Positions 6,669-13,041 of a DNA stretch of 20,000 bases are shown here, one piece after another. Position numbers and translations under genes: made by a program. The notes under the pieces were generated by a model that saw only the letters and a list, made by a program, of their open reading frames with translations, was not told the origin of the DNA and did not search any database. This DNA comes from an uncultured virus (IMG/VR IMGVR_UViG_3300021599_002354) (Duplodnaviria > Heunggongvirae > Uroviricota > Caudoviricetes), in the IMG/VR virus record IMGVR_UViG_3300021599_002354. One strand, 5' to 3'. How positions within the stretch are numbered: the stretch's first letter is position 1; each line of letters opens with the position of its first letter.

Positions 6669-7210
6669 TATATATTATTCTTTCTACTGTCGATTATTGA
6701 TTCAAAAGTTGTTTTGAATGTCTCTTCAAATTTTACTAATTTATCTAAAACTTGTCCAACTTCATTTTCTAATTTCATCATTTCCGCATTAACATATACA
6801 CCAGAATCTTTACCTGCGATGAATACAAAACTTATATCCTCATCGGATAATTTACCATCTAATCTAACTTGATCTTGATTTATTGTTAAACCTGGTTCAA
6901 AATCTACAATTTGTGAAACTTGTTGTTTGAAGTTATCCAATAGGTCTGATATTGATTTCTTTTGTTCATCTGTCAAATCCATATCCGCCTCGTCATTTGA
7001 TATCATTTTAACATCCACATCATTGATCGCAGTAATGTTGTCTTTTTGTCCACTGTCTCCTGTTTCCTTATTAGAATCCATATCAACACCAAATTCAGTG
7101 TCTTCTAATAGTTTATTTGCTTTTTTTGATTGATGTGATTCATTTAACTTTCTCAATGTGTTCAACATTGTTTTTGTCTGATCGTATGCTATGACTTTTC
7201 TCTTATCCAT
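6668..7210 (-). CDS. Hypothetical acidic protein (180 aa)
   Basis: Clean ORF, overlapping or coupled at both ends. Confidence 0.8.
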   Translation of the reverse strand: MDKRKVIAYDQTKTMLNTLRKLNESHQSKKANKLLEDTEFGVDMDSNKETGDSGQKDNITAINDVDVKMISNDEADMDLTDEQKKSISDLLDNFKQQVSQIVDFEPGLTINQDQVRLDGKLSDEDISFVFIAGKDSGVYVNAEMMKLENEVGQVLDKLVKFEETFKTTFESIIDSRKNNI

Positions 7211-7802
7211 TTTTAAAAAATATTGTAAAATCGAACGAAGGGTTTATATCTGTATAAATATCCGAATAATTTGATTTATATACAATCCCATTAAACTTAG
7301 ACACACCATTGTTTAATGCGTGTGATGGCATTGATTTTTTTTCTATTTTATGTTTTTCACATAAAGATTCACATAACTTACTTATGGAGTCGTACTGAGA
7401 TTCATTATATTTGTCCCAAAAAAAATAATTTCTCCAATTTCGTATATGTGGTTCACTTCTATACGTGTCTCCGATCCAATTATTCATGAAACCCGTTATT
7501 GTATTTTTATGTAACCAACCGAGATTTTCGATTGCAATTTTAATAATCTTTCTATCTACGTTAGGTATGTCAAAGGTTTTTGAACTATAATCAGTATCAA
7601 ATAATTGATAAATTGCCCCAAGTTTGGAAATAACAAAATGAGGAATATCTTCATATTCCCCATTTTTTCTATACTTTATTTTATTTATGAAATCGTCAAC
7701 TCTTCTTTGAGTGTCGTATAATAGAATCTGAGTTTTCTTAGATTTTTTTCTATATATATTTAATTTTTTATCATCTAAACCGTCTACGTTGTGTACTAAC
7801 AT
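7203..7802 (-). CDS. N-acetylmuramoyl-L-alanine amidase-like (Amidase_2/PGRP fold), apparently lacking Zn-ligand histidines
   Basis: KTQILLYDT, PHFVISKLGAIYQLFD, IKIAIENLG, YNESQYDSISKLC..L..KH.I and GIVYKSNY....TDINP follow the Amidase_2 motif order. Confidence 0.7.
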   Translation of the reverse strand: MLVHNVDGLDDKKLNIYRKKSKKTQILLYDTQRRVDDFINKIKYRKNGEYEDIPHFVISKLGAIYQLFDTDYSSKTFDIPNVDRKIIKIAIENLGWLHKNTITGFMNNWIGDTYRSEPHIRNWRNYFFWDKYNESQYDSISKLCESLCEKHKIEKKSMPSHALNNGVSKFNGIVYKSNYSDIYTDINPSFDFTIFFKNG

Positions 7803-8019
7803 TACGAGAAATTACTTTTCTTATTTGTGTCTGAGGAAGAATTTCTTCTTCTGACTGTGGGATTATGGTTTCATTATTTTCCAAATCATATATTACAAGA
7901 TTTGGGTTTCCGTCGTCCTTTTCCCAATATAAAGATTCTTCATCAACTAATTCTGTCGAATCTAATATTTGTGTTGTATCCGAAACCGGGTCTTCTGATT
8001 GGGTTTTTTCTTCTATTAT
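7771..8019 (-). CDS. -1 frame continuation (82 aa, no ATG) of the 433-aa membrane protein
   Basis: IIEEKTQSEDPVSDTTQILDSTELVDEESLYWEKDDGNPNLVIYDLENNETIIPQSEEEILPQTQIRKVISRNVSTQRRRFR*; same acidic composition as the upstream tail and reachable only through the A11 tract. Confidence 0.7.
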   Translation of the reverse strand: MIEEKTQSEDPVSDTTQILDSTELVDEESLYWEKDDGNPNLVIYDLENNETIIPQSEEEILPQTQIRKVISRNVSTQRRRFR

Positions 8020-9317
8020 TTTTTTTTTTCATCTTCCTCATTATTGGGAGATGGTTCATTTATCTCATCGATTTGAGTTGTCTCTTCATTTGTTGCAAAT
8101 GGTTCAGGAACCGTTTCTTGTTCCCATTCTTGAAACTGATTTGGGTAATCCTCAATATTATCTTGGAAAATATTCTCAGAATTTGGTTCTATAGTGGAAA
8201 AATTTTGTTCTATTTCTTCTTCAGTAGGTTCTATTGTGGAAAAATCTTCCTCTTCAACTAACTCAAATTTTCTTTCCCATTCATCCATAAACATCTCCCT
8301 AACTTCCTCGTCTGATAGTGCTGGTGTGATAGTTTCTTGTTTTAGTTGTTCATGAATTTCTTCTGTCATTTCAAATGCCCCCTCCGGTCCTATTGTAAAG
8401 TCATCACTAACAACCGGCTCCTTAACTATAGGAATAGTGTAAGGTGGTGGATCATATAAACCAAGTTCTTCATCTTTTTGCATCATTTCAACAAGTATTT
8501 CTTTTCTTTCTTCTTGTGTAGGAGTGGTTGGAAATGTGTAAACGGGTTTACTGTACTCGTCATCGTATTCCATATTTTCGGGAAATATACTATGTTTTTC
8601 TTCTTCAATTACAGGAGGTTGGTCATCCCAAGTACTAAACGGCATTTCAATATTTTTTTCTGTGATATTATCTTGATATTTTTTTGCCGACTCTTTTAAG
8701 TTTTCATTTGGTTTTGGTGGGTTCAATAAAACCTCTTCTAATTTTTTAAAATCCTCATCGGATAATCTAATTTTAGAAACTTCACTCATTAAATGATTTG
8801 CAGGAATTACATCCTTTTCTTCTTTTATTTCATTTGTAATTTCTTTTTTCCTATCCTCTTCAGTAAATTTCACTAACATATGAAGAAATGACAAAGAAAT
8901 TATTGGTAACATTCCACCAGCAAATAGTGCTAAAAATCTTTTATGACCAACAAGATCACCTTCTTCTACACCCATAAAAGAAACTAAAGGTGATACTAAA
9001 TCTACCCAATCTTTGAAGGGGATTGAGTTTATATCAATATAAGAATATGCAAAAAATATGTTACCGATGAACTGAACTAATGTAACGATTAAAAAGGGAA
9101 AATAAACTTTCTTACCCATATCGGCAGATATCGCAGCCAGAGCGGATAACGCAGCAATCTCAATACCTATAGACAAATAAATTGCCCAACTTAATGGGTT
9201 GGATATTCCATACCATTTAGTAACGTGTGAAATAGAAACTATTGCAACAGTTATAATCGGTATTAAAAAAGCCCCAATAATTAAACTTTTATAGTGAGTA
9301 TTAATCCAATGTTTCAT
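8016..9317 (-). CDS. Membrane protein with about 4 N-terminal TM helices and a long acidic low-complexity tail
   Basis: Hydrophobic helices in the first ~150 aa (pattern reminiscent of DUF2637), then E/D/P-rich tail with duplicated FSTIEP; ends GAA AAA AAA AAA TAA. Confidence 0.8.
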   Translation of the reverse strand: MKHWINTHYKSLIIGAFLIPIITVAIVSISHVTKWYGISNPLSWAIYLSIGIEIAALSALAAISADMGKKVYFPFLIVTLVQFIGNIFFAYSYIDINSIPFKDWVDLVSPLVSFMGVEEGDLVGHKRFLALFAGGMLPIISLSFLHMLVKFTEEDRKKEITNEIKEEKDVIPANHLMSEVSKIRLSDEDFKKLEEVLLNPPKPNENLKESAKKYQDNITEKNIEMPFSTWDDQPPVIEEEKHSIFPENMEYDDEYSKPVYTFPTTPTQEERKEILVEMMQKDEELGLYDPPPYTIPIVKEPVVSDDFTIGPEGAFEMTEEIHEQLKQETITPALSDEEVREMFMDEWERKFELVEEEDFSTIEPTEEEIEQNFSTIEPNSENIFQDNIEDYPNQFQEWEQETVPEPFATNEETTQIDEINEPSPNNEEDEKKK

Positions 9318-9319
9318 TA

Positions 9320-9610
9320 TTACTTTAATAATTCTTTTTGTAAATTAGTAATGTCTTCATCGATTTGTGTTTGTCTTTGTACATCTAAAATTTTTCGATC
9401 AGTTGCCTGAATCATCCTTTTTTCAGATTTAAGACCTTCGATTTGAAGAATTAAACCTAATTCTTTTTTTGTATAAGTGGAATCCTTAATTTCTTTTATT
9501 TCATTTTTAATTTTTGTAATTTCTCTACTATCTGAACAACCTTTGAAAAAGGTTAATAATATGATTACAAAAACAATAATTGTAAAATTTTTTTCAATGA
9601 ATTGTTTCAT
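9320..9610 (-). CDS. Membrane-anchored or lipoprotein-like coiled-coil protein (96 aa)
   Basis: Hydrophobic N-terminal segment ending FKGC (possible lipidated Cys), then heptad-like helix; TATTTAT upstream at 9631-9637. Confidence 0.7.
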   Translation of the reverse strand: MKQFIEKNFTIIVFVIILLTFFKGCSDSREITKIKNEIKEIKDSTYTKKELGLILQIEGLKSEKRMIQATDRKILDVQRQTQIDEDITNLQKELLK

Positions 9611-9625
9611 ATTTTAAATTTTATA

Positions 9626-10438
9626 TTAATATAAATAGTTAGTTAGACCAAAACTCTCGTTTCTCAACTTCTTAATCGCCTTGTCCCTTAATTGTCTTAT
9701 ACGTTCTTTTGTACATCCAAATTCTTCACCTAAATCCTCAAGGTTCGATTCAATACCCGTAAGACCATAATATTTTTCAATGATTATTTTTTCTCTTTCA
9801 TCCAACACACTCAGCATGTAATGAACTTTTCTTTTAATTTCTTCAGGGGTATTCAGTATTGCATCGGGACTCTCAACGTTGTTATTTGGGATCACATCAA
9901 TTAATTGGTCACCGTCCTCATTAATTTCTTTACTTAAACCTATACAATAAGGTAAATTAGTATCAAAATGTGCGTCGTCTTGATCAAAGAAAAATCTATC
10001 TTCATCGACCTTTTCATTCTTCTTGTTTTTTTGTGACTCTTGAACCAAATTTGATGGTATTCTTATGGTTCTTGAGTTCTCGTTCAATGATGCCATTATG
10101 GATTGTTTAATCCACCATACGGCATACGAAATGAATTTTAACCCACTTGTTGGGTCAAACCTTTCAGCTGCTTTCATTAGGCCTATGTTACCTTCCGATA
10201 TCATGTCTAATAGATCCAACCCTTGATTTTGATACATTTTTGCAACTGCAATGACGAACCTTAAATTACCCCTCACAAGTTCATCGTATAAATCTTTCTT
10301 TTCCTTCTTTGTGATTTCAGGATTTCTTAAAAGATTAAAAATTTCTTCTTGTCTGTCGTGAGTGATTACAGGGATTTTACGGAGATCTTTAATGTAGCTC
10401 TGGATTTCCTCTACATTTGTGATAATAGATTTTTTCAT
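9626..10438 (-). CDS. Sigma-70 family RNA polymerase sigma factor, Bacteroidota primary-sigma-like (no region 1.1)
   Basis: NLRFVIAVAKMYQNQGLDLLDMISEGNIGLMKAAERFD...KFISYAVWWIKQSI (region 2) and LEDLGEEFGCTKERIRQLRDKAIKKLR (region 4.2); ATG at 10438 preferred over TTG at 10489. Confidence 0.93.
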   Translation of the reverse strand: MKKSIITNVEEIQSYIKDLRKIPVITHDRQEEIFNLLRNPEITKKEKKDLYDELVRGNLRFVIAVAKMYQNQGLDLLDMISEGNIGLMKAAERFDPTSGLKFISYAVWWIKQSIMASLNENSRTIRIPSNLVQESQKNKKNEKVDEDRFFFDQDDAHFDTNLPYCIGLSKEINEDGDQLIDVIPNNNVESPDAILNTPEEIKRKVHYMLSVLDEREKIIIEKYYGLTGIESNLEDLGEEFGCTKERIRQLRDKAIKKLRNESFGLTNYLY

Positions 10439-10481
10439 ATGAATGGTGTAAGTGTAAAATAAAAGTAAATAAAATTTCGGA

Positions 10482-10925
10482 TTATTCAAAATTATCCAAA
10501 AAATTTTTTTCCTCAGGTGTTAAACTTTCGACACCCATTTTCTCTATCTTTTCTAATAATTGATCCAAGTCCATTGAGGGTTTGTGTTTGTTTTTAACAT
10601 ACTCTATCCTCATAACTTCTGTCATTTTGAAGGGTTTGAATATAAAATCCCTTATGGTATCAGGAATATGTGAACTTACAAGTGCGTCTCTCTCAACCAA
10701 AAAATAAAATTTTACACTATCATTCAAAAGTAAATCATAGACCTCTTTAGTCAGTTTCTCTTTTTCATGTTCACTGTTAAATATAACAATTATATTTTGT
10801 GAATTTTCTATAACATATCTAACCGAATCAATCACTTCTGATGCACCTAAAATTTCTGAACAAAAGAACTGCACATCTTCATGATCTTCGAACATTCCGA
10901 AAATAAAAAGAATATATGTTTTCAT
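10482..10925 (-). CDS. Hypothetical protein with C-terminal DUF6576-like motif
   Basis: Ends LDQLLEKIEKMGVESLTPEEKNFL, matching the D.ILDKI...G..SLT.EEK..L motif seen in Bacteroidota proteins. Confidence 0.7.
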   Translation of the reverse strand: MKTYILFIFGMFEDHEDVQFFCSEILGASEVIDSVRYVIENSQNIIVIFNSEHEKEKLTKEVYDLLLNDSVKFYFLVERDALVSSHIPDTIRDFIFKPFKMTEVMRIEYVKNKHKPSMDLDQLLEKIEKMGVESLTPEEKNFLDNFE

Positions 10926-10926
10926 A

Positions 10927-11580
10927 TTATTTCTTTTTTAATTCGATCTTCCAATAAACACCTCCGCCGAAATATGGGCTTAAGGTACCATTTACACCGT
11001 CAACTGTTCTATTTGTGACACCACCCATAACTTTATAAATTTTCTCAGATTTTGTTTTATACATAAGTCCTATTCCGACATTATTAACTAAATCAGGTGG
11101 GTTAAAAGATGATTCAAATCCAAAATATAGTAAATTTTTTGGTGGTAAAATAATCTTAACTGTGTCCCTAACAATTTTTTGTTTTAACTTACTTGTAAAT
11201 GATCTACCGAGAATCCTATTGTTAGAAATCGTATCGTATAATGTTATTGTTCCCACATTATTGGGTAATTCTAAAATATCTTTCTTAAATTGTCTATTCT
11301 CTGAAAATAATTTCACAATTGCCTGTGTGTCAACAACTTGATTTACAGGGACTTCAATTGTTTTTTCAACCCTTACTTCTACAGGTACTTCTATTGGTAC
11401 CTCGACTTCCACTTCTACCTCAACCGTATCGTGAACGGGAAAAGGAACAGTATCTATTTGTGATATTTCAATAGTTTTAGTTCTAATTGGTATGCACCCT
11501 TTTGGATTTAATAATATCAAAATTATTAATACTATTAATGATAATATTGTTATATTTTTATAATCAAAATATTTTTTCAT
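10927..11580 (-). CDS. Envelope protein: N-terminal TM, VEVP repeats, C-terminal beta-strand region
   Basis: ITILSLIVLIILILLNPKGC, VEVEVEVPIEVPVEV, C-terminal alternating Gly/aromatic strands (VGIGLMYK, PYFGGGVYWKI). Confidence 0.75.
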   Translation of the reverse strand: MKKYFDYKNITILSLIVLIILILLNPKGCIPIRTKTIEISQIDTVPFPVHDTVEVEVEVEVPIEVPVEVRVEKTIEVPVNQVVDTQAIVKLFSENRQFKKDILELPNNVGTITLYDTISNNRILGRSFTSKLKQKIVRDTVKIILPPKNLLYFGFESSFNPPDLVNNVGIGLMYKTKSEKIYKVMGGVTNRTVDGVNGTLSPYFGGGVYWKIELKKK

Positions 11581-11581
11581 G

Positions 11582-11998
11582 TTATTTTAATAGTAATACC
11601 GATGTTGCAACAATACCAACAAACGTACCCACTTTATACATAAAAGTTTTTCTTCTTTGTCCTTTCAGTTCTTTCAAAAGACTATTTGATTTTTCTCTTT
11701 CTAATGCAAATTGATCGTTTTGTTTAAGGATTATTAATTCTAAATTTGAAATTTGTTTAGTTTTCAAACTGTCTTTTTCCTTAAAAAGAACTATTTGTTG
11801 GTCTTTTAATGTGATTACTTTATTTAAATCACTAATTTCTACTTTCGCACCGTCGCCAGCAATAAGATCTTTAATGACCAATTTTGCAACAGGAACTTTT
11901 AATGGTACAATTGTATCAATGTTTGTCACTGTAACGGTCTGAGAAAAACTTTTCAAGGTCAGAAAAGTTATAATTGTTAACAGAATCAATTTTCGCAT
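11582..11998 (-). CDS. Signal peptide + coiled coil + C-terminal TM protein (spanin-like candidate)
   Basis: MRKLILLTIITFLTLKSFSQ signal, central coiled coil, C-terminal VGTFVGIVATSVLLLK; overlaps upstream gene by 83 nt. Confidence 0.7.
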   Translation of the reverse strand: MRKLILLTIITFLTLKSFSQTVTVTNIDTIVPLKVPVAKLVIKDLIAGDGAKVEISDLNKVITLKDQQIVLFKEKDSLKTKQISNLELIILKQNDQFALEREKSNSLLKELKGQRRKTFMYKVGTFVGIVATSVLLLK

Positions 11999-12260
11999 TT
12001 GTTTGATTTTTAATTATAGTTATGTTTTTAGTAACGTTATTTATATCTCCATCTAAATTATCTATTTCAGAGTCGATTAATTTAATCTCTTCTATTAATT
12101 TTTTATTCTCAACTTGAACGGAGTCTATTTCTTTTTGTATTGCCTCAATTTTGGCGTTATAACCTTTAATATCGGTTTTTATCTTACTACCTTGAAAAAT
12201 GTTCCAAGCCGCTAAAAATATAATAATACCGAGTAAAATGTTTTGTTTATTAATCTTCAT
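11916..12260 (-). CDS. N-terminal TM + coiled-coil protein (i-spanin-like candidate)
   Basis: ILLGIIIFLAAWNIF followed by about 60 aa of heptad repeats. Confidence 0.7.
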   Translation of the reverse strand: MKINKQNILLGIIIFLAAWNIFQGSKIKTDIKGYNAKIEAIQKEIDSVQVENKKLIEEIKLIDSEIDNLDGDINNVTKNITIIKNQTNAKIDSVNNYNFSDLEKFFSDRYSDKH

Positions 12261-12314: not shown

Positions 12315-12989
12315 TTATGATTTTCTTACTACAATTTCATCTATAATTCCATAATCTAACGCCTCATGACACCCCATCCAAAAATCTCTTGTGGCGTCTG
12401 TCATAACCTGTTCTTTGGTTTTTCCACAATATTTTCCCAATAGTTCGAATAGTCTGTCATTTTTTCTTCTCCACCACTTCATAGTAATTTCGGCGTCCTG
12501 AATATTACCCATCGCACCCCCCGAAGACTGGTGTAACATGATTTCAGAATCCTCCATCGCACCTCTTTTACCTTTTGTACCTGCACCTAAAAGGATTGAT
12601 CCCATGGATGCTGCCATTCCTGTACAAATTGTTCTAATATCGGAGTGTACGTAATCCATAACATTTACCATAGATAAACCTGATTTTACGGATCCACCAG
12701 GACTGTCTATGTGCATTGTGATGTCATTATGATCTATACTATCAAGATACAATAACTGTGCCTGTACTACTGATGACATATAATCATTAACTTCCCCAAC
12801 CAAAACTAAAATTCTTTCCATCATCAAACGTGAAAATACGTCCATAACCGTCACATTCATTTGTCTTTCTTCTAAGATATAAGGAGTTAAACTGTTTTCA
12901 ATCCTTTTATTGTAGTAGTCCAATGTTAATGAACTAACACCTTTGTCTTTTGCGTATAACCCAAAATCTTTAAACTGATTAGCGTTCAT
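12315..12989 (-). CDS. clpP: ATP-dependent Clp protease proteolytic subunit
   Basis: DVFSRLMMERI, QAQLLYLD, IDSPGGSV, catalytic Ser in AASMG, His in IMLHQ, Asp in RDFWM; Bacteroidota-like N-terminus LTPYILEERQMNV. Confidence 0.96.
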   Translation of the reverse strand: MNANQFKDFGLYAKDKGVSSLTLDYYNKRIENSLTPYILEERQMNVTVMDVFSRLMMERILVLVGEVNDYMSSVVQAQLLYLDSIDHNDITMHIDSPGGSVKSGLSMVNVMDYVHSDIRTICTGMAASMGSILLGAGTKGKRGAMEDSEIMLHQSSGGAMGNIQDAEITMKWWRRKNDRLFELLGKYCGKTKEQVMTDATRDFWMGCHEALDYGIIDEIVVRKS

Positions 12990-13011: not shown

Positions 13012-13041
13012 CAAATATATAAAAAAAAACGAGAATTCAAA
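13012..13041 (-). promoter_or_regulatory. Bacteroidota-type sigma-A promoter for clpP
   Basis: Minus strand TTTG-(18 nt)-TATATTTG matches the -33 TTTG / -7 TAnnTTTG consensus. Confidence 0.65.

Follow-up and report, generated by a model that had tools for sequence, protein, structure and literature searches.

A conserved A tract behind an RNA hairpin points to programmed recoding of a membrane-protein gene in huge phages

Why should the gene for an acidic membrane protein stop on a run of eleven adenines when the reading frame one base back stays open all the way into the next gene? The question is raised by a 20,000-nucleotide (nt) stretch of DNA, here called the window, which comprises bases 5201–25200 of the 66-kb IMG/VR virus record IMGVR_UViG_3300021599_002354, an uncultured member of the Caudoviricetes. 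In it, an open reading frame (ORF) of 433 amino acids (aa) on the minus strand (9317..8016) ends in an A11 tract at 8019..8029, which reads T11 on the plus strand. A first-pass annotation, made from the letters of the window, had proposed that a programmed −1 frameshift or transcriptional slippage on this tract yields two isoforms of about 433 and 515 aa. Comparative conservation supports that proposal. We consider it probable that the site is a conserved, programmed recoding element at which RNA polymerase slips and adds one A, in preference to ribosomal shifting, and both processes may act together.

The two reading frames meet only at the tract. The 3′ end of the 433-aa ORF reads GAT GAA AAA AAA AAA TAA TAG, placing two 0-frame stops directly 3′ of the tract (8013..8018, minus strand; TAA 8018–8016, TAG 8015–8013). 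The −1 frame is closed by a TGA at 8031–8029 and then runs through 85 sense codons, KKK plus 82 more, to a TGA at 7773–7771. This extension (7771..8028, minus strand) would give a long isoform of 515 aa, whose predicted junction peptide, EEDEKKKIIEEK, spans the tract. Only within A11 are both frames open, which makes the tract the proposed slippage site from sequence and comparison alike. The extension contains no ATG and a single TTG, placed 3′ of its conserved motif, and its C-terminal end is QRRRFR. It crosses the 213 nt between the 0-frame stop and the ATG of the next ORF, an amidase-like gene (7802..7203), and overlaps that gene by 32 nt. Re-derived from the minus strand, every coordinate and frame statement of the first-pass annotation proved correct to the base. 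Reassignment of the stop codons was ruled out as an explanation for the open frame: the 0 frame is closed by TAA followed by TAG, and the conserved peptide is not encoded in that frame.

On composition, the A11 tract by itself is no more than chance and not significant. The record has a G+C content of 31%, and a first-order Markov model predicts 1.35 T runs of at least 11 in 66 kb. The tract counts as more than chance because of the comparative evidence set out below. It is also the sole homopolymer of at least 10 in the whole record, in which long homopolymers are depleted: T runs of at least 9 number 1 against 8.7 expected, and A runs of at least 9 number 2 against 3.0 expected. Such depletion is as expected if polymerase slips on these runs, an argument made in PMC1088944. 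Both A9 runs of the record (window positions 13021 and 16563) are intergenic.

The length of the tract is reproducible across assemblies. A11 was re-found in a Logan contig of run X8 (1,801 nt, depth 18.8, no gaps over 7200–8292), which maybe derives from the source sample, and again in metagenome contig L086; the A12 or A9 that the first-pass annotation had regarded as signs of a homopolymer error did not appear. At least 18 contigs, drawn from NCBI, JGI, Logan and ENA, encode an identical 433-aa product, which implies A11. A pattern scan for tract-length variants with the window's own flanks gave no matches in viral contigs, and the same scan of metagenome contigs gave one match, the A11 of L086.

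Tract and frame offset are conserved throughout the family of this protein. Among 8,000 scored candidates, 3,495 were homologues at E ≤ 0.001, and among the matches listed a KK(K) run lies within 6 residues of the C terminus in 120 of 120 homologues. We fetched 84 viral loci, the second scan being the best 80 of 141 matches; two short partial matches (L008 and L009) were left out, and the remaining 82 loci plus the window gave 83 for analysis. These fall into three classes. In 65, an A9–A11 tract at the ORF end is followed by an open −1 frame, which in L046 is cut off by the contig end. Another six encode a long form as an in-frame fusion (L016, L027, L043, L049, L050 and L053), and 12 are short forms of 234–266 aa that have neither the acidic region nor the tract. 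The out-of-frame class resolves to 43 unique sequences, the window included, with A10 in 36, A11 in five and A9 in two, and never fewer than nine. The 0-frame stop ends 3–15 nt after the tract in all 43, and the −1 frame continues for 34–152 codons. The frame offset is always the one cured by adding 1 nt, and the opposite offset was seen in none of the 43. The A run and open −1 frame that the first-pass annotation expected homologues to share are thus present, at the protein level in the homologues listed and at the DNA level in 43 unique sequences. On a tree built by quick search only, the out-of-frame state spans the whole tree (42 of 51 rows).

There is also selection on the tract itself. 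An uninterrupted run of at least nine A is kept in 47 of 47 unique long forms, whereas three consecutive AAA codons are expected in only ~53% of sequences from lysine codon use, AAG making up 19% of the lysine codons elsewhere in these genes. The in-frame fused loci, four of them unique, all keep an internal A9 or A10 at the homologous EE(D)LKKK position. In these lineages a one-base slip would truncate the protein 1–25 codons later. Three of them carry two A9–A10 tracts each, at codons 255 and 348 in L050, 264 and 450 in L049, and 384 and 402 in L016; the paired tracts sit at repeated EEKKN/EDKKK motifs, and a slip at either would truncate the product.

This breadth makes it very hard to believe in a homopolymer miscall that hides a true A12, or in a recently frameshifted pseudogene. 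Homopolymers are error-prone, and the record is a metagenome assembly with a CheckV completeness estimate of 20%. Yet the same organisation recurs in 43 unique sequences with three tract lengths, across many assemblies and four data sources. Between L023 and L025, A10 becomes A11 by substitutions with the offset kept. Decay is likewise at odds with a −1 frame that has stayed intact and selected over deep divergence.

Sequence comparison indicates that the extension is coding sequence under purifying selection, and in the −1 frame only. Over 12 disjoint pairs in a frame-neutral nucleotide alignment, the pooled ratio of nonsynonymous to synonymous change (pN/pS) was 0.44 for the extension's own frame, compared with 1.31 and 0.75 for the two others, and the three closest pairs gave 0.13–0.20. 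The last 36 nt were left out of these tests because the tail overlaps the conserved N terminus of the next gene. Protein-guided alignments of 58 pairs agree with purifying selection on the extension frame. Alignment and a motif scan place a conserved core, LYWEKDDGNPNLVIYDLENNETIIPQSEEE, at 7843..7932 (minus strand), with the consensus LYWExDDxNPNQxIYDLENNxxIIPxSEE, in which Y and E are invariant and L nearly so; a core motif of the [LI]Y[WLE]E type is present in 31 of the 43 unique sequences. The core is predicted to be disordered and is possibly a linear binding motif. An RNVxNxxRRR-like C-terminal tail occurs in 38 of 43; dual coding probably accounts for much of its conservation, since the amidase-like protein's N terminus, MLEIHNVExLD, stays conserved even where the extension ends earlier (L006, L030, L055 and L071). 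The extension has no Pfam match above the cut-off (E ≤ 5) and no PHROG family.

Some lineages encode both isoform regions as one protein. There, the membrane domain, acidic region, KKK run and homologous extension, with the same tail, lie in a single ORF. Searching 1.84 billion representatives with a profile of the extension recovered two more such in-frame proteins, P0127 (557 aa) and P0184 (450 aa); the other 68 matches are mostly 42–110 aa gene-caller fragments, with a few partial in-frame forms and apparent chimeras. The first-pass annotation had set continuous ORFs lacking a conserved A tract against its own proposal. Continuous ORFs do exist, in the four unique viral loci and in P0127 and P0184, yet all of them keep the tract. 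P0127, on a 3.9-kb Logan contig, carries an antitoxin-like segment (TacA-like, described below), the acidic region, a KK run and the extension behind an unrelated N-terminal membrane/coiled-coil domain. From its sequence, the C-terminal module has apparently moved between membrane anchors.

The extension could in principle be a separate small gene with its own start, and gene callers indeed predicted fragments of 42–110 aa from it. We assign this next to no probability. In 12 of the 31 motif-bearing sequences, the window included, the stretch from the upstream −1-frame stop to the motif has no ATG, GTG or TTG, and just two of the 31 have an ATG there. Natural fusions of the extension to the upstream protein exist as well.

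A hitherto unremarked RNA hairpin stands immediately upstream of the tract. In the window it was placed by folding and comparison at 8030..8053 (minus strand), its 3′ arm ending at the base before the tract (CAUCUCC...GGAAGAUG), and it folds at −7.4 kcal/mol with a z of −3.70, only 1 of 200 shuffles being as stable. Across the family, 33 of 43 unique sequences have a stem with a minimum free energy of −4 kcal/mol or lower that ends 0–3 nt short of the first A, compared with 15.6% of 4,614 control windows taken from the same genes; by a strict criterion the figures are 28 of 43 and 6.2%. The 40 nt upstream of the tract have a mean folding z of −2.15 across the 43 sequences. Stems vary between lineages by compensatory changes, as in CAUCAUC/GAUGAUG, CAUCUUC/GAAGAUG, CUUCC/GGAAG and CUUCGUCA/UGACGAAG. 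In a plain MAFFT alignment (A5), in which some 5′ arms are out of register, pairing across a seven-pair helix reaches 62.5%, compared with 53.2% after shuffling, and its covariation score is 0.307, compared with 0.184; on neither measure did any of 500 shuffles come as high. Sliding the helix gives covariation scores of 0.06–0.16. An equivalent hairpin is found at only one of the seven tracts of the four in-frame lineages, so the hairpin tracks the need to shift. The 70 nt downstream hold no conserved structure (mean z −0.42; 5 of 43 below −2), and no terminator-like site was found on the gene strand.

A hairpin joined to a homopolymer of RNA:DNA-hybrid length best fits RNA-polymerase slippage stimulated by a stem-loop. 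Tracts of at least nine also fit the polymerase: slippage on nine A or T is efficient in bacteria (PMC5009743), and a ribosomal heptamer would need only seven. On an A9–A11 tract the entire 9–10 bp RNA:DNA hybrid would be rA:dT, and the hairpin would fold in the nascent RNA immediately behind it. This geometry, which resembles that of an intrinsic terminator, may promote realignment of the transcript, such that a fraction of mRNAs would gain one A and read A12 in the window phage. Unslipped mRNA would yield the 433-aa protein ending at the TAA straight after the tract. The mRNA with the added A would yield the 515-aa protein, whose 82 extra residues carry the LYWExDDxNPNQxIYDLENN motif and the basic tail. 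Only ribosomes making the long form would reach the overlapping start of the amidase-like gene, and slippage may thereby set that gene's translation.

Several points weigh against placing the shift at transcription. The hairpin criterion is failed by 10 of the 43 sequences, the helix used for the covariation test was derived from the same sequences, and the loci are related, so binomial p-values for the hairpin enrichment overstate its significance. The one documented case of hairpin-stimulated slippage (PMC5009743) produces a deletion and not an insertion, so that a slip in the direction needed here is only putative. Contigs from RNA libraries (runs X19 and X20) fall at 8558–8873 and 7327–7485, off the tract, and the raw-read run X22 yielded nothing. 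One in-frame sequence, P0135 on a 1.2-kb contig, has flanks near-identical to those of the out-of-frame P0097; occasional length change, an assembly error and an RNA-derived contig cannot be told apart as the source of this difference, but in assembled sequence, at least, close relatives do on occasion differ in tract length. The heptamer A_AAA_AAA is in the 0 frame in 43 of 43 sequences, and a ribosomal −1 shift would give the same protein. Shine-Dalgarno (SD)-like tetramers, finally, lie 2–20 nt upstream in 21 of 43 against a background of 16%.

The heptamer and the SD-like tetramers favour a ribosomal −1 shift or sliding, in which tRNA-Lys pairs would slip back on A_AAA_AAA in unaltered A11 mRNA to make the 515-aa product. 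That ribosomes can slide along iterated AAA codons has been documented (PMC4363877). Even so, the tracts are never shorter than nine though seven would do, and no downstream stimulator is conserved. With the P site in the tract, moreover, the ribosome would enclose a hairpin that abuts the tract. Upstream hairpins are known to dampen ribosomal −1 shifting and not to promote it, and Bacteroidota, to which two database labels discussed below point, are known to make little use of SD pairing. The SD-like tetramers are in part the hairpin's own 3′ arm and glutamate codons. We therefore regard a purely ribosomal event as unlikely, while giving it more weight than any other alternative. Where the first-pass annotation had left ribosomal and transcriptional shifting open, the upstream hairpin favours RNA polymerase as the more probable agent.

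Phase variation at the DNA level would locate the slip in replication: the tract would change length in the genome, and only rare in-frame genomes would make the long protein. Both frame states do occur in the family, the four in-frame rows of the quick tree require four separate changes, and P0135 is in frame whereas P0097, its flanks nearly the same, is not. Set against this, tract length is invariant within each of seven groups of near-identical loci, which together comprise 32 loci of different assemblies, with the proviso that consensus assemblies hide minority variants. The A11 state recurs in L086 and the Logan contig, and the exact 433-aa product on its 18 or more contigs. Random length change should yield both offsets, and only one is seen. 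Nor would a locus that is merely off be expected to show selection on its extension, or a hairpin that goes with the out-of-frame state. Phase variation thus appears quite improbable, and polymerase slippage remains the reading that we favour.

Among the closest parallels to the phage site is a bacterial gene for a membrane protein. In Citrobacter rodentium tssM1, an A11 tract stands before a stop codon and mRNAs carry 10–15 A; there and in Yersinia pseudotuberculosis tssM, extra A's restore the frame, giving short and full-length variants, and the available part of PMC4256274 describes neither an SD sequence nor mRNA structure typical of ribosomal shifting near the site. That gene belongs to a bacterial secretion system and its slippage was proven by mass spectrometry of reverse-transcription PCR products, whereas the phage site rests on comparison; the same part of the source reports no upstream hairpin. 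Shigella flexneri spa13/spa32 offers a second likeness. There, slippage adds a 112-aa C-terminal extension to 25–30% of the product, and the coding sequence of this extension runs at its end into the next gene, with a strong effect on that gene's expression (PMC5009743). The extension and the amidase-like gene of the phage are laid out in the same way. This is a type III secretion gene, and coupling to the downstream gene at the phage site would be by analogy.

Other systems share single features with the phage site, all as described in PMC5009743. In the Roseiflexus IS630 insertion sequence (Penno et al. 2015), a nascent-RNA stem-loop 5′-adjacent to the slippery motif, with a 9–10 bp hybrid, enables slippage through a geometry akin to that of a terminator. 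Its motif is T5C5 and its product one base short, unlike the pure A9–A11 and the added base needed in the phages, and a pure A9–A11 run, unlike T5C5, can slip without help from a hairpin. Thermus thermophilus dnaX resembles the in-frame lineages (L016, L027, L049, L050, P0127 and P0184) in that the long product is one ORF and a slip truncates it; dnaX is a replication gene, and a two-product function in the in-frame phage lineages is putative. In the phage tail-chaperone pair G/GT, a fixed fraction of the product likewise gains a −1-frame C-terminal extension. There, a ribosome shifts on a heptamer near the end of gene G, which encodes a tail morphogenesis protein, whereas the site described here combines at least nine A with an upstream hairpin in the gene for a multi-pass membrane protein beside an amidase-like gene.

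What the two isoforms do is suggested in part by the architecture of the protein. The 433-aa short isoform (8016..9317, minus strand) comprises an N-terminal membrane domain, a DUF1778/TacA-like segment and an acidic, mostly disordered region that ends in EEDEKKK. By hydropathy, the membrane domain (residues 1–152; 8862..9317, minus strand) has four predicted transmembrane (TM) helices, and it holds most of the invariant columns of the alignment. It has no Pfam match above the cut-off (E ≤ 5) and no PHROG, and it matches only unnamed viral clusters in the ESM Atlas. Comparing 7000–9700 with annotated phage records gave no blastn match, and tblastn gave one weak N-terminal match, to an unannotated 462-kb uncultured phage.

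Residues 173–215 (8673..8801, minus strand) resemble the C-terminal, toxin-neutralising half of DUF1778/TacA antitoxins. The segment matches PF08681 at E 2.6e-6 (27.7 bits against a cut-off of 21; profile positions 37–79 of 80), and profile A1 matches DUF1778 chains in the PDB, namely 7zg5_C (E 1.8e-4), 6ajm_C, 6gtq_C and 5zgn_A. PF08681 positions 1–36, the ribbon-helix-helix part, are unmatched in the 433-aa protein, and no GNAT toxin family was found among the 26 window ORFs scanned. It follows that the protein is not a canonical antitoxin and would contain at most a toxin-binding segment. It could be a membrane-tethered antitoxin mimic directed against the abortive-infection toxins of the host. 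In an AlphaFold2 model of the fused relative L027 (mean pLDDT, a per-residue confidence score, 59.8), the TacA-like segment is the only region above 90 and the one soluble part folded with confidence; the remainder is predicted to be disordered, the extension falling below 50. The model had no Foldseek match in the PDB at E ≤ 0.001.

The gene immediately downstream is a constant companion. It encodes a 199-aa Amidase_2-like protein (7203..7802, minus strand; Pfam E 9.8e-8, 32.8 bits against a cut-off of 26, profile positions 25–119 of 131), which had no PHROG family and, with alignment profile A4, no PDB match at E ≤ 0.01. A homologous ORF of ~200 aa lies downstream in 42 of 42 unique relatives. 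Its ATG sits within AAT GTT, which encodes N and V in the RNV tail of the extension, and the overlap is 32–35 nt in most relatives. We infer that the locus makes a membrane-anchored protein in two isoforms and may also gate translation of the gene that follows.

A lysis cassette around the 433-aa gene is possible. The protein is holin-like in having four TM helices and adjoining the Amidase_2-like ORF, but it is 433–515 aa long, and it matched no holin family in Pfam or PHROGs. Upstream, small ORFs at 9320–9610, 10927–11580, 11582–11998 and 11916–12260 (all minus strand) each have an N-terminal TM or signal-like segment and coiled coils. In two of them Gly-Cys follows the hydrophobic stretch, and one carries another TM segment at its C-terminal end; none has a family match, and their sequences are spanin-like by shape only. 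The neighbourhood also includes an exonuclease, a primase-like gene and a Dam-like methylase, and is mostly of replication type. The envelope/lysis operon named in the first-pass annotation is thus a plausible guess. Two genes upstream lies a sigma-70-like protein with regions 2 and 4 (9626–10489, minus strand), which suggests that the host's core RNA polymerase transcribes the region and would then be the enzyme that slips. A ClpP-like protease is encoded further upstream (12315–12989, minus strand).

The phages that carry this locus appear to be large and aquatic. Relatives on contigs of 317–336 kb indicate that the record covers only part of a huge phage genome. The sequence was found in 12 studies in total, among them runs that carry a freshwater or lake-water metagenome label. 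In microbial genome bins, homologues appeared only in L087 (Emticicia sp., 2.2-kb contig) and L088 (Flavobacteriaceae, 248-kb contig), both labelled Bacteroidota. The L088 homologue has A11 and a 108-codon extension, and its contig is probably the phage itself. The two labels hint only weakly at which phylum the host belongs to.

Programmed transcriptional slippage has been described in a few bacterial genes, in insertion sequences and in RNA viruses. Our full-text literature search found no report of this site; nor did it find slippage described for jumbo or huge phages, or for a phage gene of membrane or lysis function. As far as we found, the kind of mechanism is known, and what is new is the gene, the host system, a covarying hairpin placed beside a pure A tract, and the natural contrast that shifted lineages make with in-frame ones.

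At its most speculative, the locus might be read as a tunable, terminator-like device of hairpin plus A10. RNA polymerase would set a fixed isoform ratio for a membrane protein bearing an antitoxin-like segment and would gate an amidase-like enzyme, as a timer of a late, lysis-type function whose two isoforms would behave like a holin/antiholin-style pair, in a widespread clade of huge phages associated with freshwater Bacteroidota. Were this right, the locus would be the first case of conserved recoding by polymerase slippage to be described from a double-stranded DNA virus. We hold this full scheme to be doubtful as a whole. The recoding matters for annotation as well, since gene callers split or truncate the gene in thousands of metagenomic records and the long isoform is missing from protein databases. 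Lineages that need the shift and have the hairpin, set beside fused lineages that lack it, amount to a natural experiment on the role of nascent-RNA hairpins in slippage at pure A runs.

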